Positions 2,365 through 45,420 of a stretch of 64,000 bases of DNA are shown here, in pieces. Position numbers and translations under genes: made by a program. The notes under the pieces are model-generated. The model was not told the DNA's origin. It did no database searches and saw only the letters and a list, made by a program, of their open reading frames with translations. Where the stretch lies: contig NZ_JAQNDN010000024.1 in NCBI RefSeq assembly GCF_028369095.1, positions 89,350 to 153,349 on the forward strand. Reading direction: 5' to 3'. Positions within the stretch are counted from its first letter, which is position 1, and every line of letters starts with the position of its first letter. The DNA comes from Nannocystis radixulma (lineage in GTDB: Bacteria; Myxococcota_A; Polyangia; Nannocystales; Nannocystaceae).

Positions 2365-5300
2365 TCAGGGCTTGGGCTGCGCGGGCTCGACCGGGGCCAG
2401 GGCCTTGGGCGCGGCGGGAGTCTGGGCCTTGAGGCGCTTGCGTCGCGGCTCCCACACGGCCTTGGGCCGCAGGGGGATCCGGCCGCCGAACAGCGAGAAG
2501 TAGCGCTGCGCGCCGTCGTTGCCGCCGCCGATGAGGCCGAACAGGGCGCGCCAGTGGAGGCCCTTCTTGACGCCGATGCCGTCGCCCTTGGCGTCGCTGA
2601 TCGCCTGCTCGGTGCGCCACCACCAGCCGAGGCCGGGGCCGATGACCTGGGTCTCGCGGCCGCGGCCGCGCTGACGGGCCCAGATGGCCGGCACGACCTG
2701 CGTGACGCGGCCCTTGCGGCGGATGTCCCACCACAGGAAGGCGCCGAAGGTGCCCGAGTTCTCGCCGCGCTCGATGTGCCAGATCAACGGGAACTGGACC
2801 CAGTCGTTGTCCTGGCCGCGCCGGCGCTGGAACACCAGGGCCGGGAAGACGCTGGTGAAGCTGGTGTCCTTGGCCCAGTTGTTGTCGCGCAGGAACAGCG
2901 GCAAGAGCCAGGTCATGCGCCGCTCGGCGTAGCTGTGCGCGGTGTAGAAGAGCGGCGGCGCGACCACGGTGGTCACCTTGTGCGGTCGGCGGAAGTTCCA
3001 GACCATCAGCCCGGCCTGGAACCACCGGTAGTCCTCGCGGTGGGCGCCGACGAACAGCGGCGGCAGCACGACGGTAGTGCTGCGATCCTTGGTGCGGTAG
3101 GCCTTGCGGAAGAACAGCGGGAAGAAGACGGTGGTCTTGAACTGCCGCGTGGTCGTGTGGCCGAAGTTGAGCGCGTACCAGGTGAGGCGCTCGCCGGGCC
3201 GCACGTTGGCGCCGCCCAGCAAGGTGAGGAACCGGCGGCCGCCCGGGTCCTTGTCGAAGTAGTAGAGCATCAGCGCGCCGTGGCTGGTGCGGCCCTTGCC
3301 GTCCTTGCCGTAGAGGAAGAACGGCCACGAGCCCCACAGCGTGTAGCGGCAACGATCGTCGTCCTCCTCGCGGAAGCCGCACTTCTGGTAGCGGAACGCG
3401 AACGGGACCACGCCGGTGAAGCGGTAGTTCTTGTGCAGGCGGAAGAAGTCGAAGAAGATCGGCGGAGCCAGGCTGAAGCGCGTGAAGTTGAACTGACCCT
3501 TGACGCCGACGACGAACGGGAACGCGACCCACGAGCGGCGACCGTTGGCCCGCTGACGGTCGAACCAGAACGGCACGGCGATGGTGGTGTGCTCGTTCTT
3601 CCCCTTGTCGGCCTGGTGGAAGATGAGCGGCAGCGAGATCAGGCGCCGCTTCTCCGCCGAGTCCATCCACCAGTAGACCGGGACCACACCGGCGTTGAGC
3701 GAGGTGCGGGTGAGGCGGTGGAACGCCGGGCCGGCGATGAGCGTGTGCGTGCGCCGGACCTTGTCGCGGCTGTAGAAGAACGGCAGCAGCAGGCCGGCGT
3801 CGACGTCGATGCCCTCGGGCTGGCGCTGGCGGAAGTAGAACGGGACGACCGCGAGGTTCTTGCGCGGCTTCTCGCCGCGCGTGGCGGTCCGCCAGACCAG
3901 CGGCGACCACATGTCGAGGTCCTCGCTCGGCGCGCGGTGGCGGGCGAACAGCGGCGCGATGACGAGGTTGCTGGCGACGCCGCCCTCGACCTTGCGCCGA
4001 TCGTAGAACACCAGCGGGATCAGGCCGAAGCCGCGGCGGACCGGATCCTTGTAGCCGCGGAAGCCGTAGAGGAGCGCCGCGGCCGACCAGGTGCGCTGCT
4101 CCGGCGTGCGGTAGGCGCCGCCCAGCGGGGTGAGGGTGAGCGTCTTGCCGTCCTTCTGGCGCCGGTAGAAGAGGGGGAACAGCGCGGTGTGGCGCTCGTC
4201 GCCGGCGCGCTTCACGTCCCAGAACAGGTTGAGCACGCCGATCGTGCGGTGGTCGGGGCCCTTGCTGCGGGCGAACAGCGGCGACACCGTCAGCGCGCGC
4301 TGGGCCTCGACGTCGTGGACATGTCCGAAGAGCAAGGGCGGGACGATGCCGTAGCGGTACTTGTCGTCGCGGCCGGCGAACACCAGCGGGGCGAGGCCGC
4401 CGTGACCGCCGGACTTGACCTTCTTGGCGTAGATCGGGCCGAGCACCCACAGGTCGCTCGGCTTGGCCGGGTCGGTGTCGCGGCGGTGCCAGAACAGCGG
4501 GGTGATGGTCTGGTACGAGCGGGTGCCGTCGCGGCCGACGAACGCGAGCGGGGCGAGGCCGGCGTCCCAGCGCTCGCCGCGGCGGCGGTAGAAGCCGAGC
4601 ACGCCGGCCGACAGCGTGCGCGAGCCCTTGCCGTCGTAGGCGCTCGGATCGTGCGAGTGGCCGAACAGCGGCGTGACGACCTGGAAGCTCTTGCCGCCCG
4701 GCTCGTTGCGCACGAACGTCAGCAGCGGGGTGATGCCGAAGCCCCAGCGGCCGTCCTTGCCGGCGCGACCGCCTCCGAGCAGGGTGTAGACCCGCGTGTC
4801 CTGCGGGCTCTTGCGCGCGTACAGCAGCGGGACGAACACGCTGCTGGTGACGCCGGCCTTCACGTCGCCGAACTGCCAGAACAGCGGGAACAGCACCCGG
4901 TTGCGCTGCTCCGGGTCGCGGTAGCTGACCCATGGGAACGCCGACCAGGCGACGCTGCCGCGGTCGCGGTTCTCGGAGCGCCACACCAGCGGCGTGGCCG
5001 AGAACAGCTTGCGCGTCGGGGTCTGGTGCGAGAACGTGAGGAGCGGCGGGACGGCCCACGCGCGCAGGCTGCGGGCCTTGTCGCTGCGCTGCACGTACAG
5101 CAGCGTCCACAGGTCCTTGCGGTTGCCGTACTCGCTCGACTGCCAGTGCACGAGCGGCAGCACCGTGTGCCACTTGACCCCGCGGGCCTTGTTCTGCCCG
5201 CCGATGTAGAGCGGGACGCCGACGTTGACGGTGCTCGGGCCGCGGGTCACGCGGTAGAACAGCGGGAAGCCGACGAAGTAGCGCAGGTCGTTGAGCGGGT

Positions 5301-6414
5301 CCTTGTCGGTGGTGTTCTTGTGGCCGTACCAGAACAGCACCGCCGAGAAGCCGCGCATGCTGTCGGGCGTCTTCTGGTGGTAGTGGAAGGGGACGACGAT
5401 CAGGTTCTTGACCGACTTGTTGCCCCACCGCCACACGAACGGGAACTGGCCGAAGCTGAACTGCTCGCCGACCCGCTTGTAGCCCATCAGCAGCGCGACC
5501 GCGCCCCAGCCGCTGGTGCGCTCGCTGAACGAGCCGAAGAACAGGATCGCCGGCGACAACCACCGCCGCTTGGCCGTGCGCTGGCTGTACCAACCTGTCG
5601 TCAAGGACAGGTTGAAGTGGAACAGCTTCTCGGGGTGGGTCGCGGTGCCGCGGCGGTCGAAGAACAGCGGCGGCAGCGTCAGCGCGCGCGTGCGGTGCGT
5701 CGTGTAGGTGCGGTCGATCCAGAACGGCGGGACGCTCTTGCCCTTGAGGAAGCGCGGGACCTCGTCGGCCGGGTCGGGCTTCTCCGGCTCGGGCACCAGC
5801 ACCGTCACCGGCGGGGCGTTGTCGTTGGTCGGCTCCGGCGCCGGCGCGACTTCCTCGTCGCCGGCCTGGAGATCGTCGCCGCTCGGCGCCGGCGCGAGGT
5901 TCGGGGTCGGCCGCGTCAGCGGGCTGCCCGTGGGGCCAGGTCCCGAAGGCCCTGGCTGAGCGGGCATGTCCTCGGGGACAGGCTCGACCGGCGCGGCCGT
6001 CTCGCTCGCGGGCGGCTCGCTCGCGGGCGGCTCGCCGGCGGGCGGCTCGGCCTGGCCGCCGGGCAGGCGCCGCGGGGTGGTGCGCGGCGGGGCGAGCAGC
6101 AGCGGCGCGCCGAGGCCGGCGACCAGGTCGGCGGGGCGCAGCCCGGGCGCGGCGTGCAGGGCCGGCCAGGTCGGCGCGCCGGTCGAGGCGATCATGCCGA
6201 GCTGCGGGACGGGGCCCGCGGCGTGGCTGTCCCGAGGGACAAGTCCGATCAGACAGGCGCCGATCAGGCAGGCCGACACTGTGGCGACGCGCGTGTGGAT
6301 GACGGCGCCGACGACCGGGACGTCGCCGGGCGCGTCGAGCTGGGGACTCGCGTCGGCGCCTCCGAGGCGCACAGTGGGCTCAGAGGCGACCAAGGGCCGG
6401 GAGGCAATAGCCAA
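2365..6414 (-). CDS. Giant (~1350 aa) tandem-repeat protein with ~50 copies of a 20-24-aa unit around a P-L-F / P-L-(L/V)-x-W core; probable N-terminal signal-anchor and Pro-rich linker; no confident family
   Basis: Uninterrupted ORF with protein-like Y/F/W/K/R-rich repeats such as ...TPLFWHRRDTD, ...APLVFAGRDDKY, ...PLFYRRQKDG. N-terminus has a hydrophobic segment VATVSACLIGACLIGLV then P/E/A-rich spacer. The true start may be downstream of 6414, since the 5966-6414 region contains GGACA-family repeats. Confidence 0.7.
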   Translation of the reverse strand: MAIASRPLVASEPTVRLGGADASPQLDAPGDVPVVGAVIHTRVATVSACLIGACLIGLVPRDSHAAGPVPQLGMIASTGAPTWPALHAAPGLRPADLVAGLGAPLLLAPPRTTPRRLPGGQAEPPAGEPPASEPPASETAAPVEPVPEDMPAQPGPSGPGPTGSPLTRPTPNLAPAPSGDDLQAGDEEVAPAPEPTNDNAPPVTVLVPEPEKPDPADEVPRFLKGKSVPPFWIDRTYTTHRTRALTLPPLFFDRRGTATHPEKLFHFNLSLTTGWYSQRTAKRRWLSPAILFFGSFSERTSGWGAVALLMGYKRVGEQFSFGQFPFVWRWGNKSVKNLIVVPFHYHQKTPDSMRGFSAVLFWYGHKNTTDKDPLNDLRYFVGFPLFYRVTRGPSTVNVGVPLYIGGQNKARGVKWHTVLPLVHWQSSEYGNRKDLWTLLYVQRSDKARSLRAWAVPPLLTFSHQTPTRKLFSATPLVWRSENRDRGSVAWSAFPWVSYRDPEQRNRVLFPLFWQFGDVKAGVTSSVFVPLLYARKSPQDTRVYTLLGGGRAGKDGRWGFGITPLLTFVRNEPGGKSFQVVTPLFGHSHDPSAYDGKGSRTLSAGVLGFYRRRGERWDAGLAPLAFVGRDGTRSYQTITPLFWHRRDTDPAKPSDLWVLGPIYAKKVKSGGHGGLAPLVFAGRDDKYRYGIVPPLLFGHVHDVEAQRALTVSPLFARSKGPDHRTIGVLNLFWDVKRAGDERHTALFPLFYRRQKDGKTLTLTPLGGAYRTPEQRTWSAAALLYGFRGYKDPVRRGFGLIPLVFYDRRKVEGGVASNLVIAPLFARHRAPSEDLDMWSPLVWRTATRGEKPRKNLAVVPFYFRQRQPEGIDVDAGLLLPFFYSRDKVRRTHTLIAGPAFHRLTRTSLNAGVVPVYWWMDSAEKRRLISLPLIFHQADKGKNEHTTIAVPFWFDRQRANGRRSWVAFPFVVGVKGQFNFTRFSLAPPIFFDFFRLHKNYRFTGVVPFAFRYQKCGFREEDDDRCRYTLWGSWPFFLYGKDGKGRTSHGALMLYYFDKDPGGRRFLTLLGGANVRPGERLTWYALNFGHTTTRQFKTTVFFPLFFRKAYRTKDRSTTVVLPPLFVGAHREDYRWFQAGLMVWNFRRPHKVTTVVAPPLFYTAHSYAERRMTWLLPLFLRDNNWAKDTSFTSVFPALVFQRRRGQDNDWVQFPLIWHIERGENSGTFGAFLWWDIRRKGRVTQVVPAIWARQRGRGRETQVIGPGLGWWWRTEQAISDAKGDGIGVKKGLHWRALFGLIGGGNDGAQRYFSLFGGRIPLRPKAVWEPRRKRLKAQTPAAPKALAPVEPAQPKP

Positions 6415-19413: not shown

Positions 19414-20073
19414 ATGACGAAGGCTGAACTCATCGAAAAAATCGCACGCAACCGTGATCTGCCGCCGGACATCACGAAGAAGTGCGTGCAGCAGATCCTC
19501 GAGATCGCGTTCGGGGAGATGGCCGCCTACTTCGTCAAGGCGAGGGTGACGCGGGCCCAGAGCCCGCGCTTCACGTTCCCCGGCTTCGGCACCTTCACCA
19601 AGAAGAAGCGCTCGGCTCGCAAGGGCGTCAACCCGCGGACGCTCGAGCCGATGACGATCGATGCGGCCTTCACGATCGACTTCCGTCCGGGCGTCGAGCT
19701 GCGCGCCAGCCTCAACGCTCCGGCTGGCAAGTCCGCCCCCGCGGCTCGGAAGCGGCGCGCCAGCCCGGCCCAGCTCGAGCTCGAGCCGCCGAGCGCCGAT
19801 CCGACCGAGCTCGACGAGGTCGACGAGGAGGATGTCGGCGAGATGAGCGACGAGGCCGACGCGGCCGACGAGGCGCTGATCCTCCGCCGCCGCTTCACCG
19901 CCCGCGAGGACCTCGAGGAGGACGACGCCGACGACGAGTTCGACGAGGTCTCGCTCGACGTGCTGCGCCGCAGCCAGCCCGCCGACCCGCGGCTCGAGCT
20001 GCCGCCGGCGCCGATGCAGCGCGCCGACGTGCCGGGCCGCCGCGCCCACGTACGCACCGGCTCGCGCTCCTGA
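19414..20073 (+). CDS. HU/IHF-family DNA-binding protein with ~120-aa Asp/Glu-rich C-terminal tail
   Basis: MTKAELIEKIA...RFTFPGFGTFTKKKRSARKGVNPRT is the HU fold. The tail is ...DEVDEEDVGEMSDEADAADE...EEDDADDEFDE. Confidence 0.85.
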   Translation: MTKAELIEKIARNRDLPPDITKKCVQQILEIAFGEMAAYFVKARVTRAQSPRFTFPGFGTFTKKKRSARKGVNPRTLEPMTIDAAFTIDFRPGVELRASLNAPAGKSAPAARKRRASPAQLELEPPSADPTELDEVDEEDVGEMSDEADAADEALILRRRFTAREDLEEDDADDEFDEVSLDVLRRSQPADPRLELPPAPMQRADVPGRRAHVRTGSRS

Positions 20074-22974: not shown

Positions 22975-24690
22975 TCAGTTGCTCGCGCAGGGATCGTCGA
23001 GGTCGGGGAACAGGCCGCGGACGGCCCGCTGGGCGCTCGTGGCCAGCTCCTCGCGCTTGCTCGCGGCGCACAGGGCCGCGCGCACGTCGTCGGACGGGGC
23101 CGCCTTGTCGTCGGCGTAGCGCTGCAGGGCGCGCACGAGGCGGAGCGCGACCGCGAGGTCGTCGGTGCTGCGCAGTACGGCGGCGACGACGTCGGCGCCG
23201 GCGCTGCCGTGGCGATCGACGAGCTGGCGCGCGGCCTCGGCCCGCCGGTCGACGTTCTGATCGGCGTCGACCACCACGGCCTGCAGCGCGGCGAAGGCGT
23301 CGGGACCACCGCAGCGGCCGAGCGCGGCGATGACCTCGCGCGCGACGGTGGCGTCGGTCTCGAAGGTGTTGCCCGAGGTGCTGGTGCCGTCGCGCAGCCG
23401 GCGGAGGAGGCCCGCGGAGCACGGGCCGTCGACGCGGGCGAGCGCGGCTGCGCGGACCTCGGGCCAGGCGTGGCGCTGGCTGACGTCGAGCCAGGCGCCA
23501 TCGGCCGGCAGGGTGGCGACGGCGAAGGCCGCGACGGCGACCCGCGGCGCGTCGGCGCCGGTGAGCTGCAGGCGGTCGACGACGGCGGCGGCAGGGCCGG
23601 GCTCGAGCCCGGCGAGGGCGAGGCTGCCGAGGATCTCGCTGCGCAGCTCGACGCGCTTGTCGGCGGGCAGGTGCTGCTCGGCGAGGCGCGCGAGCACCGT
23701 CTGCGCCGCGGGATCGCTGCGCCGCGCGACGAGCACGCGGAGCGCGGCGACGCGGGCGGCGAACTCGGCAGCGGCGTCCTCGGCGAGGGCGGCCGCGCGC
23801 TGGGTGAACACGCCGTCGTCCCTGCCGCCGATCGCAGCCCGCAGCAGCACGAGGCCGGGCAGGCGCGCCGGTTCGCGGGCCTCGATCGCGGCGTCGACGA
23901 CCTGCACGAGCTGGGCCCGCTCGCCGGCGGACGCGTGCGCGCGGCGGGCGATCGCCTGGCGCAGCGCGGCGCGCAGGCTCGGCGCGCCGAGGCCGACCAG
24001 CGCGACGAGCTCGGGCAGCTTGTCGGCCGGCGTGACGGCGACGAGGTCGGCGAGCAAGAGGCCACGCAGCTCCTCGCTGAACGACTTCTCGGCCACGAGC
24101 CCGGTGAGCGCGGGCGCGGCCGCGGGGCCCTGCGCGCGCAAGATCTCGCGCCATGGTTCGGCGGCCGGCAGCTCGATGCCCTGCTCCTGCGACTGCTTGG
24201 CCGCGGCGGCGACGTCGCGGCGCATGGCGTCGGCGAACAGCGGGACGTCCTCGGGGCGGGCGATGCCGCCGAGCAGCGCGAGCAGGCGGCGCTGCTCGAC
24301 CGCGGTGGGCGCGGGCGTGGCGGTCATGCGCGCGGTGACCAGCGGCGCGGCGACGGTCGGGTGCTGCTCGAGCCGCGCGCGGGCCTGCAGGTAGTCCTGG
24401 CCGCGGCCGGTGAGCACGAGCTCGATGTCGGCGCGGGCCTGCTCGGGGCCGTAGGCCGGCGGGATGGGGGCCGGAGCGGGCTCGGGGGCGGAGGCCTTGG
24501 CCTTGCCGCCGCGGGCCGGCGCGAGGGCCAGGAGCGGGCCTGGCCGTTCGGACATGCCCGAACGCACCTGGCCGCCAGGACCTGCGCCGAGGGACATGCT
24601 CGAACCGCCAGGTGCCGCGCCGGCGAGCGCGAGCCAGGCGATCAGCGAGAGGGCCGACAGGGGGGTCGCCACGGGGGACAAGACTGCCAC
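22975..24690 (-). CDS. Secreted all-alpha (HEAT/ARM-like) repeat protein
   Basis: 571 aa. Signal peptide MAVLSPVATPLSALSLIAWLALAGAA. Leu/Ala-rich helical repeats. The N-terminal region carries GGACA-family copies. Confidence 0.55.
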   Translation of the reverse strand: MAVLSPVATPLSALSLIAWLALAGAAPGGSSMSLGAGPGGQVRSGMSERPGPLLALAPARGGKAKASAPEPAPAPIPPAYGPEQARADIELVLTGRGQDYLQARARLEQHPTVAAPLVTARMTATPAPTAVEQRRLLALLGGIARPEDVPLFADAMRRDVAAAAKQSQEQGIELPAAEPWREILRAQGPAAAPALTGLVAEKSFSEELRGLLLADLVAVTPADKLPELVALVGLGAPSLRAALRQAIARRAHASAGERAQLVQVVDAAIEAREPARLPGLVLLRAAIGGRDDGVFTQRAAALAEDAAAEFAARVAALRVLVARRSDPAAQTVLARLAEQHLPADKRVELRSEILGSLALAGLEPGPAAAVVDRLQLTGADAPRVAVAAFAVATLPADGAWLDVSQRHAWPEVRAAALARVDGPCSAGLLRRLRDGTSTSGNTFETDATVAREVIAALGRCGGPDAFAALQAVVVDADQNVDRRAEAARQLVDRHGSAGADVVAAVLRSTDDLAVALRLVRALQRYADDKAAPSDDVRAALCAASKREELATSAQRAVRGLFPDLDDPCASN

Positions 24691-24700
24691 GCCTCGCCGC

Positions 24701-26065
24701 TCAGCGCAGCACGATCGTCTCGATCTGCCGGCGCGACATGACGTACGACAGGAGGAGCGCGCGCTTGTCCGTGGCTTGAGTCACGTCGAGCAGGCGCAGG
24801 AAGTCGGCGCTCTCGGAGTCGGCCTCGGCCTGGTTGGCGATCATCCGCTGGACGATCTCGACGAGCGCGCCGGCCTTGAGCGGGGTGTCGGTCGGCATGC
24901 GGAGGAAGAAGCCGAAGTACTCGTGGGCCACGCCGGCCATCTGCAGGCCCTCGGGGCGCGGCAGCAGCAGCTGGAGCAGCCCGCGGCGGCCCTTCGACAT
25001 GCCGCCGAAGCCGAGCTCGCGGACGGCGGCCTCGGTGGCGACGGCGAAGAAGCCGGCGTCGACCGGCACGCCGACGACGAGGCGGTCGACCTCGCGGGGC
25101 AGTGTGCGCTTGCCGCGGGCATAGTTGGCGGCGATCTCGTTCATGACGCCCGGCGGCGCGACGACCAGCTCGCCGCCGTCGAGCACGCGCAGCAGCACCT
25201 CGCCGCCGTGGTAGCGCAGCGGCGTGAGCGCATAGGCCCGCTCGCCGCGGGGGAGCAGGCGGCCGGCGGCGACCGCGGCCTCGAGCTTGGCGGCGAGGTC
25301 GGGGATCTCGATGATCGCGGCGGAGCGGGTGAAGTCGCCGTGCGCGAGGGCGAACGCGCCGCGGGTCCAGACCGCCGCGGTGTCGTCGCCGAGGGCGCGC
25401 GCGACCTGGCAGGTGGCGTCGGCGAACACCGGCTCGGGCCGGCGCGGGCGCCCCTCGGCCTCGGCCTGGGCGCGCCGCTTCTTGTACGCCTCGGTCCGCT
25501 TCTTCTCCTCGGCGACGACGTCGGACATGGCCTTTTGGACAGTCACACCTGTCTCTCGGGACTTGCGCTGGGCCTTGCGGAAGATCCGGACGTCGTCGAG
25601 CTGGTCGCGCACGTGCGGGTCGCAGGTCATGACGTACTCGGCGATCTCGTCGAGCTGCTTGGCCAGCGGCGCGGCCATGAGGCGCTGCATGTGGGCGTGG
25701 AAGACGACGTCGAAGTCCTTCGGCAGGAAGCGGGCGGTGTAGGGCAGGTGGCCGCGGCGGGTGTCGGTCTTGCCGGCGTCCCAGAAGCGGCGCAGCGCGG
25801 CCTTGAGGTCCTCGGGTCGATCCTCTTTCTCGTACAGCTTCACGAGGCGCAGGAGGCCGTCGGTGACCAGCTCGCGGCGATCGGTGCGCTCGTCGAGCAG
25901 CGCCTCGAAGTGCTCGATCGCGCAGTCGCGGCGTTCGATCTCCTCCATGCAGTGCACGCCCTTGCGGTGCAGGCGCTCGGCGCTCGACTCGCCGCCGCGG
26001 ACCGACGCGGGCGCCAGGGCGAGCAGGGCGAGGGAGGCGGCGGCGAGGAGCGTGCGGGCGGACAC
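24701..26065 (-). CDS. Hypothetical secreted protein (454 aa), first gene of a three-gene minus-strand operon
   Basis: Signal peptide MSARTLLAAASLALLALAPASVRG. Balanced composition. 10-bp gap to the next gene. Confidence 0.55.
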   Translation of the reverse strand: MSARTLLAAASLALLALAPASVRGGESSAERLHRKGVHCMEEIERRDCAIEHFEALLDERTDRRELVTDGLLRLVKLYEKEDRPEDLKAALRRFWDAGKTDTRRGHLPYTARFLPKDFDVVFHAHMQRLMAAPLAKQLDEIAEYVMTCDPHVRDQLDDVRIFRKAQRKSRETGVTVQKAMSDVVAEEKKRTEAYKKRRAQAEAEGRPRRPEPVFADATCQVARALGDDTAAVWTRGAFALAHGDFTRSAAIIEIPDLAAKLEAAVAAGRLLPRGERAYALTPLRYHGGEVLLRVLDGGELVVAPPGVMNEIAANYARGKRTLPREVDRLVVGVPVDAGFFAVATEAAVRELGFGGMSKGRRGLLQLLLPRPEGLQMAGVAHEYFGFFLRMPTDTPLKAGALVEIVQRMIANQAEADSESADFLRLLDVTQATDKRALLLSYVMSRRQIETIVLR

Positions 26066-30247: not shown

Positions 30248-32026
30248 TCAGGTCTGGTCGTCGTCTTCGAGCAGCTTGAGGCCGACGGCGAGCGCTTGCT
30301 GGGCGCGCTGGGCGGCGTCGCGGCGGCGGGCCAGCAGGGTCTCGGAGCGATCGAGCTGAGCGCCGAGCTCGTCGACCTGATGCTCGAGGCCGGCGATCCG
30401 ACGGTTGGCGTCGGCGGCCGCGTCCTCGGCCTGGGCGCGGCTGTCGGCGAGGGCACCTTGCAGCGCGCCGATCTCGCCGCGGGCGGTCTCCTCGGCCTGC
30501 GCCAGCGTCTGCTGCAGCTGCTGGATCTCCCGCCGCGCCGCCTCCTCGGTGGCGGCCAGCGTCTGGGTCAGCTGGCTGATCTGCAGGCGGGCGTTCTCCT
30601 CGGTCTCCATGATCGTCTGCGACACGCGCTCGCGCTCTTGTTGGGCCTGGTCGCGCAGGGTCGCGATCTGGCCGTGGAGCTGGTTGACGGTGGCGCGGTG
30701 GTCCTGCTCGTGGTCGTCGATCTCGGACTGGTGCTGGCGGGCCAGCGACTCGAGCGCGGCGACCCGCTCGATCTCCGCGTCGGCGAGGACGCGCTCCATC
30801 TCCTGGCGATGCTGCTCGAGCTGCGCCTCGAGGTCGGCGACGCTCTTGCGCGCGCCCTCGAAGCCGTCGACGAGGCTGGTGACCTGACCGCTGGACTCGA
30901 GCAGCTGCGCGTTCAGGCGCTCGCGCTCGGCCTCGAGCTCGGTGATGGCCACGGCCTGGCTCTCGACGCGCTGATGGGCCTCGGCGAGGGCGATGGCGGA
31001 TTTGTCGCGGTCCTGGGCGTTCTGGGCGCGGACGGCGGCGAACTCGGTCTCGGTGTCCTTGAGCTTCTTCTGCAGCACCTCGAGGCGGGTCTTGACGCCC
31101 TCCTCGCGCTTGAGCGCGGTCTGCTTGTCGCGCACGGAGGCCTCGACGGCCTCCCGCGACGACAGGATCTGCTCCTGGGCGGCGAGCACCTGGTTCTCGA
31201 GCTCGCTGATCTGGGCCTGCAGCTCGCGCTGGAGCTTCTTCGAGTCGAGGATGGTGCGCTCGCGCGACTCGAGCTCGTCCTTGAGGGTCAGGATCTCGCG
31301 GCTGCGCGCGTTGAGCTGGCTCTTGAGCTGCAGCACCTCGCGCTGGGCCTTGAAGCCGCCGGCGGCCATGGTGGCGTCGGACATCTCGGAGTCGGGCGGC
31401 GGGACGGCGCCAGAGCCCTCGCGCGGGAGGGCGCTCGAGGGCTCGTCCTGCAGGGCGCTGAAGCCACCCTCGAACTCCTGCTCGAACTGCTGCCGACTCT
31501 CGCCCGTGCGCGCGGGCGGGTCGCGCAGCTCGATCTCGAGGCGTTCTTTCGGGCGCGGGGAGCGGGCCGGCTTGGCGGGCGCGGCGGGCGGGTTCGCGCC
31601 CGAGCCGGGCCGCGCGCCGGGGCCGGGCGAGGCATCGGCGCCGGCTTTTGCCTCGCCGATCGGCAGGACGGGGCGGATCGCCGAGATCAGGCGGCCCTCG
31701 TCGAGCGGCAGGCGCAGGTAGTCGTCGGCGTGGGTCTTGAGGTTGCGGTGCTGCTCGAACACGTCCTCGCTGACGTTCGAGGAGTACATGATGAGCGGGA
31801 TCCGCTTGGTGTCCTCGTGGCGTCGCAGGCGGTTGCACACCGAGAAGCCGGAGGTCAGCGGCAGCTCGGCGCGCAAAAAGATGATGTCCGGCGCGGCCTG
31901 GCGCGCGACGTTGACAGCTTCAGGCCCGTTCTCGGTGATCGTGAACTCGAAGCCGTACGGGGCCAGGATGTTCTTGAGGGTGGCCGGGGTCTTGCCGTCC
32001 GCGTCGATGATCAGCGCTGAGTGCAC
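30248..32026 (-). CDS. FrzS/AglZ-like protein: N-terminal pseudo-receiver domain (Arg in place of the phospho-acceptor Asp) plus Pro-rich linker plus ~350-aa coiled coil
   Basis: ALIIDADGKT...PDIIFLRAELPLTSGF...IPLIMYSS. Then a long heptad-rich Q/E/A/L region. Start GTG at 32026 (alternative TTG at 32035); the long ORF to 32164 is probably overcalled. Confidence 0.7.
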   Translation of the reverse strand: MHSALIIDADGKTPATLKNILAPYGFEFTITENGPEAVNVARQAAPDIIFLRAELPLTSGFSVCNRLRRHEDTKRIPLIMYSSNVSEDVFEQHRNLKTHADDYLRLPLDEGRLISAIRPVLPIGEAKAGADASPGPGARPGSGANPPAAPAKPARSPRPKERLEIELRDPPARTGESRQQFEQEFEGGFSALQDEPSSALPREGSGAVPPPDSEMSDATMAAGGFKAQREVLQLKSQLNARSREILTLKDELESRERTILDSKKLQRELQAQISELENQVLAAQEQILSSREAVEASVRDKQTALKREEGVKTRLEVLQKKLKDTETEFAAVRAQNAQDRDKSAIALAEAHQRVESQAVAITELEAERERLNAQLLESSGQVTSLVDGFEGARKSVADLEAQLEQHRQEMERVLADAEIERVAALESLARQHQSEIDDHEQDHRATVNQLHGQIATLRDQAQQERERVSQTIMETEENARLQISQLTQTLAATEEAARREIQQLQQTLAQAEETARGEIGALQGALADSRAQAEDAAADANRRIAGLEHQVDELGAQLDRSETLLARRRDAAQRAQQALAVGLKLLEDDDQT

Positions 32027-32183
32027 GTGGCTCAAAATATCCGGCCTTGCTCGCTTCCACCAGGGGCGAGGGGCCGGTCCATGGGGCCCTGCATAACGAC
32101 GTTCGACGGGTCGGCGGCGCCGCCTGCGACGAGGCTCTTGCGACGACGATCGTCGCGCGGTCACCGCGAGGTGGGCGCCGGCT

Positions 32184-32561
32184 TCACGCGCTCACGGACA
32201 GGCACGCGGCGACGGCGGCGTGGACGCGGGCGGGGTCGAAGGGCACGTGCAAGTAGGCGGTGGCGCGGGTGCGCAGCTTGCTGTGGCCGTCGAAGACTTC
32301 GGGTGGGACCTCGGAGCCGTACAGGATGAGCGGGATCGCCCGGGTGTCGTCGTCGCGTCGCAGGCGGTTGCACACCGCGAAGCCGGAGGTGCCCGGCAGC
32401 TCGACGCGCAGCAGCACGAGCGCGGGCGCGTGGGCCCGCACCCACGCGACGGCCTCGCCGGGATCGACGAGCACCGCGGCCGGCAGCGAGCGGGCGGCGA
32501 GGATCGTCGCCAGGCGGATCGTCAGCCGCGCGTCGGCGTCGATGATGAGGGCGGACGCCAC
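32184..32561 (-). CDS. Stand-alone pseudo-receiver (CheY-like) domain protein, paralog of the FrzS-like N-terminus, also with Arg at the phospho-Asp position
   Basis: VASALIIDADARL...ALVLLRVELPGTSGFAVCNRLRRDDDTRAIPLILYGS. Start (GTG near 32561) is uncertain. The longer ORF to 32747 runs through a GGACA-repeat cluster. Confidence 0.5.
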   Translation of the reverse strand: MASALIIDADARLTIRLATILAARSLPAAVLVDPGEAVAWVRAHAPALVLLRVELPGTSGFAVCNRLRRDDDTRAIPLILYGSEVPPEVFDGHSKLRTRATAYLHVPFDPARVHAAVAACLSVSA

Positions 32562-32595
32562 CGCGCCGCACGGTACCACGCGACGCAGCGATCGA

Positions 32596-35145
32596 CTAGG
32601 CGCGCGAAGCCAGCAGGCACAGCGCGCCGTGGAGGTCGAGGTCGACCTCGACCTGCATGCCGGCGCGGATCTGGCCGCGCAGGATCGCGTCGGCCAGGAG
32701 CGCCTCGACGCTGCGCGTAAGGACATGTCGCAAGGGACGTGCCCCAAGAGACATGTCCTTTCCGCACAGCGAGACGACGTGGCGGGTGGCGGCCTCGGTG
32801 AGGCGGTAGCGGATGCCGCGCTCGCGCAGCAGGCGGTCGGAGGAGGCGCGGACCAGGCGGGCGCAGATCCGGGCCAGCTGCTCGCCGCCGAGCGGGTGGA
32901 GCACCAGCGGGGCCTCGATGCGGTTCCACAGCTCGACCGGGAAGGCGGCGCGGGCGGCCTCGAGCACGCGGGCCTCGTCGAGGCGGGCGTCGCCGGTGGC
33001 GTCGAGGCAGGTGGCGCCGAGGTTCGAGGTCATGATGATCGCGGCGTGGCGGAAGTCGATGGTGCGGCCGCGGCCGTCGGTGAGGCGGCCCTCGTCGAAC
33101 ACCTGCAGCAACAGCTGGTGGACGTCGCGGTGGGCCTTCTCGATCTCGTCGAGGAGGACGACGCAGTGCGGCTGCTTGAGCAGCGGGTCGGTCAGCGCGC
33201 CGCCCTGCTCGTGGCCGACGTAGCCGGGCGGGGCGCCGACGATCCGCGCGACCGCGTGGGCCTCGGCGTACTCGCTCATGTCGAGGCGGACGAACGCGTC
33301 GGGGCGGTCGAACAGGGCGCCGCACAGGGCCTTGGCGATCTCGGTCTTGCCGACGCCGCTGGGGCCGAGCAGGAGGACGGTGGCGATCGGGCGCTGCGAG
33401 CCGAAGCCGGCGCGGTTCCTGCGGATCAGCTGGGCGATGGCGGCGAGGGCGTGCTCGTGGCCGACGACCTTGCGCGCGAGCTCGGCCTCGAGCTCGAGCA
33501 TGTCCTGGTGGCCCTGGCCCTCGAGGCGCTCGCGCGGGACACCGCTGCGCTCGCAGACGATGTCGACCCAGGTGTCGCGCTGGACGGCGCCGCGGCCCTC
33601 GCGGGCGGTGCGGGCGCAGGCGAGGTCGAGCAGGTCGAGGCTGCGGCCGGGCTGGGCCAGGCCGGCGAGGAAGCGGTCGGACAGGCGCACGAGCTCGGCC
33701 AGGCGGCTACCTGACCCGAGAGACAGGCCGTGCTGGGCCAGCACCGCCGGCGCGGCGGCGGCCACGGCGGCGCGCAGGTCGTCGCCCTCGAGCGGCTGGA
33801 GGGTGACGAGGTCGAGGGCGGCGGTCAGGCCGGGGGCCCAGGCGCACAGGCGGGCCTGACCCTCGGGCGAGGCGACGGCGACGATCGGCGGCTGTCCCGA
33901 AGACCAGGCCTTGGCGAGGGCGCCGAGCAGCGCCGGCGGACCGTCGCCGCCGAGGCGGTCGAGGTCGTCGAGGATGGCGACGCCGCCCTGTTTGGCGATC
34001 GCAGCGAGGTCGGCGCGCAGGCCGTCCTCGTCCTCGTAGCGGGTCGCGGACAGGTAGAAGACCGGTTGGTGGAGCAGGCCGGCGAGGTGCTTGGCGACCA
34101 GCGTGCGGCCGCTGCCGGCCGGACCCACGAGCAGCGGCGGGCGCGGCGAGCGGCGCAGGACGGCGTCGGCGAGGCGCGCCAGCTCGCCCTCGCGGCCGTG
34201 CAGCGGCGGCAGGGCCGAGGGGTCGATCGGGCTCAGGCGGTGGCTGCGGGCCTCGGGCTGAGGCGCGGGGGCCGGGCGCGGCTCGGGCTCGCTGGCCGGC
34301 GCGACCTGGGCGTTGGGACCTGGCTTGAGGGACAGGGCCGACGGACGGCCGGGCTCGGGGCGGGCGGGCAGGCGCGGCTGGGTGCGGGTCGGGGCGCGCG
34401 TGAGCAGGCGCGGCGAATCGGACTGGTCTTCGGGCCAGGTGCGGGCGGCGTCGAGGCGGGCGCGGGCCGGATGGTCTTCGGGCCAGGTGCGGACGTCGGT
34501 CGGTCGAGGCGAGCGCGTGGCAGGCTGGCCTTCGGGCCAGGTGCGGGCGCCGCCGCGGGCGGGGCGGGGCTGGGCCTCGCTGGCGCCTGTCCGCGGGGAC
34601 ATGTCGCCCGTGCGACCGTCGGCGAGCGAGCGGCGGACGGGGCGCTCGCCGGCGGCGACGAGGGTGGACATGCGCTGGACGACGGGGCGCCGCGGCATGG
34701 CTGTCTCGGAGGACATGGCCGATGCGACATGGCGTGAGGGACCTGTCCCGGTGAGCGCGGCGGCCTCGAGCGCGCGCAGGCGGTCGATCAGCAGCTTGCG
34801 CAGGGTGCCGCAGGCGGCGCCGGCCCGCTCGAGCAGCTGGTAGGCGTGCGAGTCGGCGGAGCGGACGAGGGCGAGCAGGAGGTCGAGGTCGGGATCGGCG
34901 GCGCGACCCCCGCGCTGGGTGATCCGCAGGCGCCAGTCGGCCGGCTCGGTCTCGACCTCGGCGTGCAGCTCGTCGACGAGGGCGCGCAGGCGGGCGACGT
35001 CGAGGCCGTGCGCGGCCAGGACGCCCTGGACCGAGTCGGCGGCGCACAGCGAGAGCAGGAGCTCGCACGAGCAGCCGGCCCGCGGCCCGGCTTGCGAGGT
35101 TCGGCGCGAGCCGCTGCGCACGCCAGGCTCCGGGGATCCGATCAT
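32596..35145 (-). CDS. Atypical Clp/Hsp100-family AAA+ ATPase: single Clp-N repeat, ~250-aa disordered insert with RTWPED repeats, degenerate AAA-1, canonical AAA-2
   Basis: AAA-1 has Walker A GPAGSGRT and Walker B ILDDLD. AAA-2 has GPSGVGKTEIAKAL and VVLLDEIEKAH, and ...GARPLRHVL. Confidence 0.75.
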   Translation of the reverse strand: MIGSPEPGVRSGSRRTSQAGPRAGCSCELLLSLCAADSVQGVLAAHGLDVARLRALVDELHAEVETEPADWRLRITQRGGRAADPDLDLLLALVRSADSHAYQLLERAGAACGTLRKLLIDRLRALEAAALTGTGPSRHVASAMSSETAMPRRPVVQRMSTLVAAGERPVRRSLADGRTGDMSPRTGASEAQPRPARGGARTWPEGQPATRSPRPTDVRTWPEDHPARARLDAARTWPEDQSDSPRLLTRAPTRTQPRLPARPEPGRPSALSLKPGPNAQVAPASEPEPRPAPAPQPEARSHRLSPIDPSALPPLHGREGELARLADAVLRRSPRPPLLVGPAGSGRTLVAKHLAGLLHQPVFYLSATRYEDEDGLRADLAAIAKQGGVAILDDLDRLGGDGPPALLGALAKAWSSGQPPIVAVASPEGQARLCAWAPGLTAALDLVTLQPLEGDDLRAAVAAAAPAVLAQHGLSLGSGSRLAELVRLSDRFLAGLAQPGRSLDLLDLACARTAREGRGAVQRDTWVDIVCERSGVPRERLEGQGHQDMLELEAELARKVVGHEHALAAIAQLIRRNRAGFGSQRPIATVLLLGPSGVGKTEIAKALCGALFDRPDAFVRLDMSEYAEAHAVARIVGAPPGYVGHEQGGALTDPLLKQPHCVVLLDEIEKAHRDVHQLLLQVFDEGRLTDGRGRTIDFRHAAIIMTSNLGATCLDATGDARLDEARVLEAARAAFPVELWNRIEAPLVLHPLGGEQLARICARLVRASSDRLLRERGIRYRLTEAATRHVVSLCGKDMSLGARPLRHVLTRSVEALLADAILRGQIRAGMQVEVDLDLHGALCLLASRA

Positions 35146-35243
35146 GGAGCGAGACGCTACTCGCCGGACCGCGGACCGCCAAAAAACCGGCAGACGGGCG
35201 ACTTGCGGGGCCTGGGCGTTGTTCGCTACAAGGCCCGGGCGCC

Positions 35244-35579
35244 ATGCGAAGGTTTCAGATCCTCGTCTGCGACGGGCCGAGCTGCGGCATCACCCATGAG
35301 AGCGAGCGCCTGGTGACGCTGCTCAAGGCGGGGATCGCGGCCGACCCCGGGCTGAAGCCGCGCTGCCACGTGGTCGCCTACAACTGCTTCGGCCGCTGCA
35401 GCGAGGGGCCCAACGTGTTCGTGAGGCCGCTGGCCCCCGGCGAGAACGGGGACGTCGAGCCCCGCGACGTCAGCGGACGCGGGTTCTATCCGGGGGTGAC
35501 CGAGGAGAAGCTGCCGGTCATCCTCGAGCGCCACGCCGGCGAGGGCACGCCCGTGGCGGAGTGGGTCGAGGAGTACTGA
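35244..35579 (+). CDS. Thioredoxin-like [2Fe-2S] ferredoxin family protein
   Basis: MRRFQILVCDGPSCG...YNCFGRCSEGPNV Cys pattern. Confidence 0.65.
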   Translation: MRRFQILVCDGPSCGITHESERLVTLLKAGIAADPGLKPRCHVVAYNCFGRCSEGPNVFVRPLAPGENGDVEPRDVSGRGFYPGVTEEKLPVILERHAGEGTPVAEWVEEY

Positions 35580-35799
35580 GGCGCGCGAGAGCGCTCGTGG
35601 CGCGAGAACGCGCCAGGGCGACTTGGTCGCCAGCGCCAGCCGACGCTTCGGGCGGTGAGGGCGCGCGAGGCGCTGGCTGCTAGCGAGCGCGATCTTGCCG
35701 AGAATTGAGATGTTCTCATGGACATGTCTCATGAGACATCCGCGAGCGACCCGCCCGGGCTGGAGCCTCGGGCGGGCGATGCTCGGAGGCGAGGCGGGC

Positions 35800-43174: not shown

Positions 43175-45370
43175 TCATCGCGCGGCCTCCGGGCGACGGG
43201 CCAGCCAGGCCGGCAGGCGGGTGGTGACGAGCAGGAGCAGGAAGATCAGGACGGCGTAGGCGGCGGCGTAGCCGTACTGGGCCTCGCGGGTGAAGGCCCA
43301 GCGGTAGGCCTCGCTGACGAGGATGTCGGTCGCGCCGTCGGGGTCGCCGCCCGAGACGAGGAACACGACGTTGAACATGTTGAAGGTCCAGATCGCGCCG
43401 AGGGTGACGGCCGGGGCGAGGGCGGGGCGGATCATCGGCAGGGTGACGCGGGTGAGGCGTTGCCAGCGCGAGGCGCCGTCGACCTCGGCGGCCTCGAGCA
43501 CGTCGGTGGGCACGGCCGTGAGCGCGCCGAGGGTGACGACCATCATGAAGGGGAAGCCGAGCCACACGTTGGTGGCGACGTTGGCGGCGAAGGCGGTGGC
43601 GAAGCGCGAGAACCAGGCGATCGGCTCGATGCTGGTGCCGAACAGGTCGTTGACGGCGTGAATCAGGCCGGTGACGGCGCCGAACTGCTGGTGGAACATG
43701 CCCTTCCACGCCAGGGCGGTGACGTAGCTGGGGACGGCCCAGGGGATGATCAGGAGCACGCGGTAGAGCGCGCGCAGGCGCAGGGTCGGGCGCGACAGCA
43801 CGAGGCCGAGCGCGAGGCCGATGCCGAGGTGGAGGACGACGTTGACGGCCGTCCACAGGAAGGTGACGAGGAGGACGAACCAGAACGAGCCGGTGGCGAG
43901 CAAGGGGCCGCCGCGGGCGGTGAGGATCTCGAAGAAGTTGGCGAGGCCGACGTAGTAGCCCTCGCCGGGGCGGCCGGCGAACAGCGAGGTGGCGGCGCCG
44001 ACGATCAGCGGGACGAACACCAGGAGGCCGACGACGACGACGCTGTGGGCGACGTAGCGGTAGGCAGGCAGCGAGCGGCGCAGGGCCTGGCGCGCGTCGG
44101 GGTCGCGGGCGCGGCGGACCAGGTGGAACGCGACGAGCAGGAGGCCGAGGCCGAGCAGCAAGAGCGCGGGGGTCGGCGAGGCCGCGGCGGGAGGGGGACG
44201 GCGGACGTCGGCGAAGCGGTGCGCGGCCTCGGCGAGGGCCTCGGCGGGGTCGGCCTGGCCGCGCAGGACCTTGCGGATCGCGCGGAACGCCGGCTCCCAG
44301 GTCGAGCGCATCGCCGGGTCGGCCGACATCGGCTCGGCCAGCTCGGCCTGGGCGCGGAAGCCGGCGAGGACGGGGCTGTCCTCGGGGACAGGTACGTCTG
44401 TCCTCACGGACAGGGTGCCGGCCTGGCGCTGGCGCAGCTCGGCCGCGTCGGCGCTGCCGAGGGCGCGGGCCAGGGCCAGCGCTGCCGGCTTCTCGACCCC
44501 CTGCGGCGATAGCATGGCGGCCTCGACGGTCAGCGGCGGGCGCATCGGCAGGCCGGTCTCGGCGACGATCGGCAGCGGGACGACGCGCCAGGCGAAGCCG
44601 ACCTGCGCGAGGTCGCCGACCAGCCACGGGCCGCTGATGGCGAAGGCCGCTCGGCCGCTGCGGAACAGATCCGCGACCAGCGCCCCGTCGGCGTCGCGCG
44701 GGACGGCGCCGCGCTCGGCGAGCTCGCGCGCGAACGCCAGCGAGCGCTCGGCCGCCGGCCCGACGAAGCCGAAGGATCCGTCCTCGGCGAGCATGCGCCC
44801 GCCGAAGGCCGCCAGCAGCGGCATGTGGCCGTAGGCGCTCTGGGCCTCGTAGGCCAGCGGGTAGACGCCGGCGGGCAGCGACAGCGCGGCGATCTCCTCC
44901 AGGGTCTTCGGGACATGTCCGACGAGACCGGCGTTGACGAACAGCGCGACCGACTTGGCGCTCAGCGGCACGCCCCAGACGACGCCGTCCTGGGTGACCG
45001 CGGCCAGCGACTGCGCGGAGTAGACGTCGGGTGCGTCGAGCGCGGCAGTCGCCGGGCCGACGAGGGCGCGCTGGCGGTAGTCGCCGAGGCGCTCGTGCGA
45101 GTCGATGAAGACGTCGGGCCCCTGGCCGCGCGGGATGGTCGCCACCAGCTTGCTGGCGAAGCTCTCGTGGGCGACGGCCAGCAGCTCGACGCGGTGGCCG
45201 GTGGTCGCGCTGAAGCGCTCGACGACCTCGACCAGGGCGGCGGCCTCGGCGTCGCGGTAGGCATGCCACAGCCGCAGCTCGTCGGCCCGCGCGAGGGCGG
45301 GGGCGAGGGCGGCGAGCAGCGCGAACGCGGCGCAGAGGACATGTCCGGGAGAGCCTGTTCGCTGACGCAT
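43175..45370 (-). CDS. Fused maltose/maltodextrin-type periplasmic solute-binding protein plus MalF-like ABC permease
   Basis: N-terminal ~400 aa is a signal peptide plus SBP (..LRLWHAY..VFIDSHERLGDY..). C-terminal ~300 aa is a permease with EAA loop EAAEVDGASRWQRL. The ATG is supplied by a GGACATGCG repeat copy. Confidence 0.8.
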   Translation of the reverse strand: MRQRTGSPGHVLCAAFALLAALAPALARADELRLWHAYRDAEAAALVEVVERFSATTGHRVELLAVAHESFASKLVATIPRGQGPDVFIDSHERLGDYRQRALVGPATAALDAPDVYSAQSLAAVTQDGVVWGVPLSAKSVALFVNAGLVGHVPKTLEEIAALSLPAGVYPLAYEAQSAYGHMPLLAAFGGRMLAEDGSFGFVGPAAERSLAFARELAERGAVPRDADGALVADLFRSGRAAFAISGPWLVGDLAQVGFAWRVVPLPIVAETGLPMRPPLTVEAAMLSPQGVEKPAALALARALGSADAAELRQRQAGTLSVRTDVPVPEDSPVLAGFRAQAELAEPMSADPAMRSTWEPAFRAIRKVLRGQADPAEALAEAAHRFADVRRPPPAAASPTPALLLLGLGLLLVAFHLVRRARDPDARQALRRSLPAYRYVAHSVVVVGLLVFVPLIVGAATSLFAGRPGEGYYVGLANFFEILTARGGPLLATGSFWFVLLVTFLWTAVNVVLHLGIGLALGLVLSRPTLRLRALYRVLLIIPWAVPSYVTALAWKGMFHQQFGAVTGLIHAVNDLFGTSIEPIAWFSRFATAFAANVATNVWLGFPFMMVVTLGALTAVPTDVLEAAEVDGASRWQRLTRVTLPMIRPALAPAVTLGAIWTFNMFNVVFLVSGGDPDGATDILVSEAYRWAFTREAQYGYAAAYAVLIFLLLLVTTRLPAWLARRPEAAR

Positions 45371-45414
45371 GTCCGGGCGGACATGCGCGAATCGACAGGC
45401 TCTCGCGGACATGC

Positions 45415-45420
<6 letters not shown>
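45345..45420. repeat. GGACA-family array of 5 copies (GAGGACATGTCC..GCATGTCC..GGACATGCGC..GACAGGCTC..GGACATGCTC) at the malK / SBP-permease junction
   Basis: Read directly. Confidence 0.8.

Follow-up and report, generated by a model that had tools for sequence, protein, structure and literature searches.

What does a double-ring Clp/Hsp100 protein do with an ATPase module that has lost the residues for hydrolysis? This question is raised by a gene of the myxobacterium Nannocystis radixulma, located in a 64,000-nucleotide stretch of contig NZ_JAQNDN010000024.1 (positions 89,350 to 153,349), which we call the window and number from its first letter. Positions 32596 to 35145 of the minus strand correspond exactly to one open reading frame (ORF) of the ORF list, encoding 849 amino acids (aa). 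An earlier note on this DNA had read the product as a Clp/Hsp100 ATPase with a degenerate first AAA+ module (D1) and a canonical second one (D2), and this overall reading is borne out by the motifs, by hhalign and by Foldseek. We conclude that the gene is a lineage-specific class-I Clp/Hsp100 of the order Nannocystales and that its D1 is a conserved pseudo-ATPase under selection. The elements that carry this conclusion are the following.

32596..35145, minus strand: whole gene, Clp/Hsp100 class-I (double AAA+) paralog of 849 aa, with its stop codon at 32596-32598.
33571..34230, minus strand: D1, a degenerate AAA+ module homologous to Hsp100 D1, with a short lid and no M-domain insertion (hhalign against ClpB, probability 100).
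34102..34125, minus strand: D1 Walker A, GPAGSGRT (Lys to Arg, R347).
34027..34047, minus strand: equivalent of D1 pore loop 1, ATRYEDE, with the Tyr retained and acidic flanks in contrast to the K-Y-R of ClpB (AGAKYRGEFEE).
33958..33981, minus strand: D1 Walker B, VAILDDLD (catalytic Glu to Asp, D394), with the Asp-Asp pair in 39 of 40 species.
33811..33834, minus strand: position of the two trans-acting Hsp100 D1 arginine fingers, PGLTAALD, which holds no Arg where ClpB reads ...ALERRF...
32599..33513, minus strand: D2, a canonical Clp AAA-2 module followed by ClpB_D2-small (Walker A 33343-33366, pore loop GYVG 33208-33237, Walker B 33139-33162).

Residue conservation was counted in an alignment of 41 species, and the family profile was built from 31 members. 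The exchange of lysine for arginine in Walker A and of glutamate for aspartate in Walker B, both named in the earlier note, are present in the sequence and hold across the order. Walker A carries arginine in 39 of 40 species and lysine in a single one, and the Asp-Asp pair of Walker B is likewise an order-wide state. In addition, both arginine fingers are gone. When D1 is aligned with the D1 modules of ClpB and ClpV, Ala-Leu takes the place of the finger arginines of ClpB, and an arginine at either position is found in none of the 41 species. The sensor-1 threonine is replaced by serine (Ser in 35 of 40 species). In 39 of 40 species there is a sensor-2-like arginine, R501, and 36 of 40 keep the pore-loop tyrosine Y370. 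Relative to the D1 modules of ClpB and ClpV, 17 aa are deleted after the Walker A helix and 5 aa after Walker B. The lid is recognized by the Pfam model AAA_lid_9 at aa 481-516 with a sub-threshold score of 19.5 bits against a cut-off of 22.8.

In AAA+ enzymes, the Walker B glutamate activates water, while the arginine fingers and the Walker A lysine stabilize the transition state. Since all three are gone from D1, a loss of ATP hydrolysis by this module is predicted and, as sequence-based predictions go, well supported. The assumption that both rings are catalytically competent fails in D1 (R347, D394, no fingers), while D2 is intact. D1 is no relic in decay. Its degenerate states hold across about 40 species, and the ratio of nonsynonymous to synonymous substitution rates (dN/dS) within the genus Nannocystis is 0.05-0.13 for D1, compared with 0.10-0.18 for the N-domain and 0.14-0.32 for D2. 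Purifying selection on D1 is therefore at least as strong as on D2, and because of this, together with the conservation of the degenerate states, we regard D1 as a conserved pseudo-ATPase. In ClpB, oligomerization and activity reportedly require the D1 arginine pair (PMC4239642). Because this pair is lost here, D1 should play a different role than in ClpB.

Two lineages with a Walker A lysine were seen overall, L004 (P0047) with GPAGVGKT and L011 with GAHGSGKT. Both already have the Asp-Asp Walker B, and P0047 also has no D1 arginine fingers. This suggests that the change from lysine to arginine came after other losses in D1, or that it was reverted.

In D2, the expected motor elements are complete, as the earlier note had stated. 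Walker A (GPSGVGKT), Walker B (VVLLDEIE), the pore loop (GAPPGYVGHE), the sensor-1 asparagine, the arginine finger and the sensor-2 motif GARPLR are all present. K600, E667, Y642, N708, R742 and R803 are invariant, with the motor motifs found in 39-40 of the 41 species. Pfam assigns AAA_2 to aa 585-744 (5.4e-53, 179.9 bits, cut-off 27) and ClpB_D2-small to aa 752-834 (8e-13, 48.7 bits, cut-off 21.9).

Two coupling elements of known Clp machines could not be found. The M-domain, which the earlier note could not make out either, is absent: in the hhalign comparison of the family profile with ClpB (P0051; probability 100, E=2e-68, aligned from ClpB residue 174 through D2), a gap stands opposite about 130 residues of ClpB, roughly 409-540. 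The AlphaFold2 (AF2) model, in which D1 and D2 are confidently predicted, contains no long coiled coil. With no M-domain, the protein is not expected to couple to DnaK in the manner of ClpB. Between sensor-1 and the segment FPVELWNRIE, where ClpA, ClpC and ClpX have their IGF/LGF loop, the ClpP-docking tripeptide [ILVM]G[FLIM] is absent in 31 of 31 members, the segment being short and ClpB-like. With no docking loop, the protein should not feed ClpP. Both absences are compatible with the "specialised disaggregase" that the earlier note had considered.

The two halves of the protein also differ in their database matches. All NCBIfam models for ClpB, ClpA, ClpV, ClpK and ClpG match the C-terminal half only, and all stay below their cut-offs: 337.7 bits against 1232.1 for ClpB (TIGR03346), 298.9 against 993.15 for ClpA (TIGR02639), 276.4 against 884.95 for ClpV/TssH (TIGR03345), and 244 and 232 against 1900 for ClpK and ClpG. 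These scores amount to one quarter to one third of the cut-off for ClpB, ClpA and ClpV and to about one eighth for ClpK and ClpG. Sequence matches in the PDB are likewise confined to the C-terminal half. For the N-terminal half, Pfam gives weak generic P-loop matches in addition to the sub-threshold AAA_lid_9 and Clp_N. With the whole AlphaFold model, Foldseek aligns about 570 columns to chains of ClpC, ClpC1, ClpB and ClpA, ClpC chains coming first.

The family is found in one order. A scan of the genome collection with the N-domain signature matched 51 loci, all in Nannocystales (Nannocystis, Enhygromyxa, Plesiocystis, Paraliomyxa and metagenome-assembled genomes, MAGs), with one member per locus in the 51 species representatives and conserved synteny. 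The closest protein, 99% identical, is annotated "AAA family ATPase" in Nannocystis sp. SCPEA4. Proteins of N. exedens, N. punicea and others share 87-89% identity, and some of them carry the annotation "ClpC". In the literature searched, we found no account of such a Clp paralog, one whose D1 is degenerate, from Nannocystis or from myxobacteria in general. We see in the family a variant within a familiar group of chaperones and no new kind of system.

Upstream of D1, the protein consists of an N-domain and a long linker:

35074..35145, minus strand: N-terminal basic tail, aa 1-24, predicted to be disordered (predicted local distance difference test, pLDDT, below 50 at residues 1-20), in the place of the canonical Clp_N helix 1.
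34750..35073, minus strand: probable diverged Clp N-domain, aa 25-132, seven helices (AF2 and fold search).
34231..34749, minus strand: disordered Pro/Arg/Ala-rich linker, aa 133-305, net charge +11 (P 0.17, R 0.16).
34402..34563, minus strand: three tandem [A/V]RTWPE[G/D][Q/H] repeats, aa 195-248, with copies at aa 201, 219 and 235.

The AlphaFold model of aa 1-132 (pLDDT 88) places seven helices between aa 26 and 131. A fold search with this model returns the N-domains of ClpC, ClpC1 and ClpA as best PDB matches over 105-123 columns, with probabilities up to 1.0 and a template modelling (TM) score of about 0.6, at an E value of only about 0.03. The 40 best PDB folds are almost all Clp N-domains (ClpC, ClpC1, ClpA, ClpT, ClpD, PfHsp101). 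That of ClpV fits poorly, at ranks 45-46 with a probability of no more than 0.16. The Pfam view is narrower. Clp_N is recognized below threshold and as a single repeat at aa 89-121 (E=0.021; 15.4 bits, with the cut-off at 20.7), which corresponds to the single Clp-N repeat of the earlier note. The model instead aligns with eight-helix, two-repeat N-domains, so that both pseudo-repeats are predicted and the domain is, on this modelled fold, a diverged two-repeat Clp_N with seven of eight helices, helix 1 being absent. Its family signature motifs are EPADWRLR and LLAIVRSADSHAYQLLE. E67, W71, R95, H100 and Y102 do not vary among the 41 species, and the signature E67-P-A-D-W71-R-x-R74 is family-specific. 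A metal site formed by cysteines and histidines (C25-x-C27...C34, H61, H100) was considered and rejected, with cysteine at C25 in 23 of 41 species and at C34 in 10 of 41, and histidine at H61 in 25 of 41.

The linker is present throughout the family with a length of 67-226 aa (median 112). Here, pLDDT is below 50 for residues 137-301, and within the genus the linker evolves with a dN/dS of 0.39-0.57 against 0.05-0.32 in the folded domains. The earlier note was right about a disordered insert with RTWPED repeats in front of D1 and overestimated its size: the insert measures about 170 aa and not about 250. The GGACA-family motifs reported with it did not hold up, since two copies of GGACA in the insert and five in the whole ORF are nothing remarkable; an enrichment was rejected on these counts. 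At the DNA level, the repeats form a tandem array (Tandem Repeats Finder, 34419-34568, period 54, 3.0 copies, 78% matches). The tryptophan-containing repeat is found only in the genus Nannocystis, in 3-5 copies, and RTWPED was therefore discarded as a family-wide motif. A sister group carries PEDSS-like repeats in the linker, and many members have short linkers with neither repeat. The repeat is a fast-evolving feature at the level of the genus; the conserved property is the long flexible tether.

The nearest relatives of D1 are found among other Myxococcota. An exhaustive HMMER search of 1.84 billion representative sequences with the D1 profile gave 14 matches at E <=1e-30, which are the family itself and score at least 130 bits. 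After a gap follows a second tier of at most 111 bits, the nearest outgroup to D1, composed of proteins named ClpC or AAA ATPase at their source, from Polyangiales and other Myxococcota. The second-tier proteins that we sampled mostly have no M-domain; they have Pro-rich linkers between N-domain and D1 and an [ILVMF]GF loop. In several of them D1 is degenerate in its own way, with motifs such as GAPGSGRT with ALDP, GIPGVGRT, or an Asp-Asp Walker B. Like the Nannocystales family, the ClpC-like proteins P0071, P0081, P0074, P0078 and others lack the M-domain, and several carry the Walker A arginine; unlike the family, they keep the ClpP loop. Six of them (P0071, P0074, P0076, P0081, P0085, P0095) have an independently degenerate D1, with GxxGxGR in Walker A and ALDP, LDRL or VEDM in Walker B. 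In a Polyangiales MAG, a related gene (L056:7309-9701) is called as two overlapping ORFs, a Clp_N part and an AAA part. Comparison of these sequences suggests that D1 degenerated more than once in a radiation of ClpC-like proteins within Myxococcota, and the Nannocystales family seems to be a branch of this radiation that also lost the ClpP loop. Orthology with the arginine-bearing ClpC-like P0071 of Polyangiales could not be backed by synteny, as no neighbours are in common.

A silent ring as such has parallels. In type-II AAA+ proteins with one non-hydrolysing ring, such as NSF (D2) and Pex1/Pex6 (D1), the silent ring serves assembly or scaffolding, and the other ring is the motor. In contrast to the protein studied here, NSF and Pex1/Pex6 belong to the classical AAA+ clade and not to Clp/Hsp100, the silent ring of NSF is the second one, and nothing is shared beyond the AAA+ fold. 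Within Hsp100, two reports describe human CLPB (Skd3) as a disaggregase with a single active ring of the second nucleotide-binding domain (NBD2) type, with no M-domain and independent of Hsp70 (PMC7343390, PMC9934407). Skd3 shares the single active ring and the missing M-domain with our protein and matches its D2 at about 160 bits. It differs in having no D1 ring and in its N-terminal ankyrin repeats, whereas the Nannocystales protein retains a dead D1 under strong selection. ClpI of Actinomycetota is a lineage-restricted third class of double-ring Clp found by bioinformatics, with a variable N-domain and sub-classes with or without the LGF motif for ClpP (PMC10149685). In contrast to our family, the ATPase modules of ClpI are intact and its M-domain is as long as that of ClpC (PMC10149685); it also belongs to another phylum. 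Among extra double-ring Clp classes limited to one lineage, ClpI is the nearest precedent, and Skd3 is a precedent for a single-motor Hsp100. The ClpG and ClpK exception models differ by an extended N1 domain and the presence of the M-domain, and our protein scores far below their cut-off.

On the observed architecture, motif states, conservation and pattern of selection, we base the following model. The protein is probably a stand-alone hexameric unfoldase with a D2-only motor, a claim that we make with moderate confidence. The D2 ring alone would burn ATP and pull substrate through its GYVG pore loops. The D1 ring would be a structural or assembly ring and entry collar, perhaps still binding nucleotide, and the diverged N-domain on its disordered Pro/Arg-rich tether would presumably capture clients or an adaptor. 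Such a machine would act independently of ClpP and DnaK. Hexamer formation, the restriction of the motor to D2, nucleotide binding by D1 and independence from both partners are predicted features of this model.

Several points weigh against it. Nucleotide binding by D1 is plausible, and its case consists of conservation, namely of the P-loop glycines (GxxGxGR[ST]), the Walker B aspartate, the sensor-1 serine and the sensor-2-like arginine. Formation of a hexamer would not be guaranteed in a protein with no D1 arginine fingers, and assembly with this pair missing is the main puzzle of the proposed model. The absence of the ClpP loop comes from a motif search, and a non-canonical mode of ClpP docking may exist. 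The status as an additional paralog would likewise depend on NCBIfam scores far under the cut-offs for ClpB, ClpA and ClpV. Outside the genus Nannocystis, the genomic context offers no functional operon.

The neighbours of the gene are:

35244..35579, plus strand: thioredoxin-like [2Fe-2S] ferredoxin-like gene, 111 aa, divergent from the clp-like gene and its most widely conserved neighbour.
32184..32600, minus strand: single-domain FrzS-type pseudo-receiver (Pfam Response_reg; best PDB match FrzS 2gkg, 3e-13; phospho-acceptor site LLRVEL).
30248..32164, minus strand: FrzS-like protein of 638 aa, pseudo-receiver and long coiled coil (Pfam Response_reg; best PDB match FrzS 2gkg, 3e-16).

By tblastn, about 38 of the 51 Nannocystales loci have the ferredoxin-like gene upstream of the clp-like gene and in opposite orientation. 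Its product matches the Pfam model 2Fe-2S_thioredx below the cut-off (E=0.008) and the N-terminus of HydB (E=0.0045), with C9, C14, C48 and C52 as candidate ligands. The pairing of the two genes may reflect co-regulation or merely stable synteny. The 98-bp divergent intergenic region between them, 35146-35243, is 94% identical across six Nannocystis species, above the coding linker of the clp-like gene, and holds an invariant GCCGGTTTTTTGGCGG element; both genes may be regulated from this region. A search of 32000-35700 for promoters and terminators gave nothing, as expected for consensus sequences of the E. coli type in a genome of 72% GC. An extension of our model would draw on this neighbour. 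In a single-motor double-ring Hsp100, the dead D1 would be a nucleotide-sensing, non-hydrolysing ring for allostery or assembly, the acidic-aromatic motifs of the tether (RTWPED in Nannocystis, PEDSS-like in the sisters) would recruit clients or partners, and the machine might be redox-linked through the divergent [2Fe-2S] ferredoxin. We regard this extension as doubtful. Such a redox-linked single-motor unfoldase, if it exists, would add a new logic of regulation to the Clp ATPases.

Could the protein instead be an unfoldase of the ClpC/ClpA type that delivers substrates to ClpP as a component of a protease? Its N-domain fold is nearest to ClpC, ClpC1 and ClpA, ClpC chains lead the ranking of the whole model, and the nearest outgroup (P0071, P0081 and others) combines a missing M-domain with an [ILVMF]GF loop. 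Against this stand the docking segment, which is devoid of the tripeptide in every profile member, a ClpA score of 299 bits where 993 are required, and the lack of a clpP gene within the 64-kb window. We consider a role in proteolysis improbable. The window holds neither dnaK nor type VI secretion system (T6SS) genes.

Equally improbable, and compatible with the stand-alone unfoldase, is a dedicated role in Nannocystis, the remodelling of the polarity and motility module by action on, or together with, the downstream FrzS-type pseudo-receivers. The clp-like gene, the single-domain receiver, the receiver with coiled coil and hflX follow each other closely on the same strand, here and in 4-5 further species of Nannocystis, and uppP comes next on this strand. 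Both receivers match the M. xanthus FrzS receiver best and have an arginine at the position of the phospho-acceptor aspartate (FLRAEL, LLRVEL), and the coiled-coil tail of the FrzS-like protein measures about 470 aa. This linkage is limited to one genus. The single-domain receiver adjoins the clp-like gene in L005-L008 only and the coiled-coil gene keeps its place in L005-L009 only, all of them Nannocystis, whereas about 30 other Nannocystales loci have a convergent NadD-DUF2520 gene downstream. The conserved function of the family can therefore not depend on FrzS-type neighbours, and the operon link was dropped as a family-wide clue. Because the gene lies between divergent and convergent neighbours outside Nannocystis, it suggests itself that it is transcribed on its own there. 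The gene looks vertically inherited, and its context gives no firm functional clue.

The earlier note had also considered an adaptor-like paralog. In a broader reading, the protein would be no motor at all but an ATP-independent adaptor, regulator or scaffold comparable to the plant Clp-like repressors SMAX1/D53. Catalysis is already lost in one of the rings, scaffolding and regulatory proteins typically have long disordered linkers with short repeated motifs, and SMAX1 is among the remote PDB sequence matches of D2 (9kkx, E=2.6e-5). SMAX1/D53 also have a double Clp-like architecture that drifted away from chaperone function. They are, in contrast to our protein, eukaryotic transcriptional co-repressors that are targeted for degradation. 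In the Nannocystales family, all catalytic and translocation motifs of D2 are invariant in about 40 species, which is expected only with hydrolysis and threading. We thus rate a non-motor function as less probable still, and the adaptor-like paralog as unlikely.

It is very unlikely that the protein is an ordinary, merely divergent ClpB, a general disaggregase that depends on DnaK. With ClpB and Hsp104 it shares the order N-domain, D1, D2 and D2-small and the lack of a ClpP-docking loop, and the top NCBIfam and PDB sequence matches of D2 are ClpB, with E. coli and T. thermophilus ClpB at about 275 bits. In contrast to ClpB and Hsp104, however, the M-domain that couples these chaperones to Hsp70/DnaK is wholly missing, and D1, which ClpB needs for its activity, is catalytically dead, having lost the Walker A lysine, the Walker B glutamate and the arginine fingers. 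The TIGR03346 score of 338 falls far short of 1232, and the connector between N-domain and D1, short in ClpB, is here the long disordered tether.

The weakest alternative, that the insert is non-coding and separates two genes or that the gene is a decaying pseudogene, can practically be dismissed: the linker is of low complexity, contains a DNA tandem repeat and evolves fast, and the related gene of the Polyangiales MAG is called as two ORFs, but the frame is unbroken, continuous ORFs with identical domain order exist in about 40 species, and dN/dS is below 0.2 in the N-domain and D1. The frame check proposed in the earlier note thus speaks for one gene with a coding insert, because the GC content at third codon positions stays high along the whole ORF (0.87-1.00 in every 60-codon block, 0.87-0.93 in the linker blocks, in a window of about 72% GC) and homologues span the same architecture over their full length. 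The start ATG and its adjoining bases are kept in five other Nannocystis species.

The remaining genes of the window are ordinary (fab genes, nrdR, a rib operon, coaBC, queA, uppP, hflX, a CLC channel, maltodextrin transport, amylases). Three large ORFs, all on the minus strand, have good coding statistics and no Pfam match at E <=1e-3: 22975-24690 (571 aa), 24701-26065 (454 aa) and 2365-6414 (1349 aa). The gene at 19414-20073 on the plus strand encodes an HU/IHF-type DNA-binding domain (aa 1-101) followed by about 120 residues, which is unusually long for Bac_DNA_binding. In the maltodextrin-type cluster with its LamB porin, amylases and MalK-like ATPase, an ORF of 747 aa (43175-45418, minus strand) fuses SBP_bac_8 to BPD_transp_1.

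For annotation, our findings call for a correction. Members of the family are labelled "ClpC" or "AAA family ATPase" and lack the ClpP loop, and a proteolytic role should not be assumed for them. For the mechanism of Hsp100 proteins, the division of labour between the rings of ClpB, Hsp104 and ClpA is usually probed with engineered Walker mutants, and the Nannocystales family represents a natural experiment of this kind. Its D1 has been silenced by three independent losses, of the lysine, the glutamate and the arginine fingers, yet across the whole order its conservation is at least equal to that of the active ring. The family could reveal what the D1 of Hsp100 proteins contributes beyond hydrolysis, for example in assembly, substrate entry or allostery.

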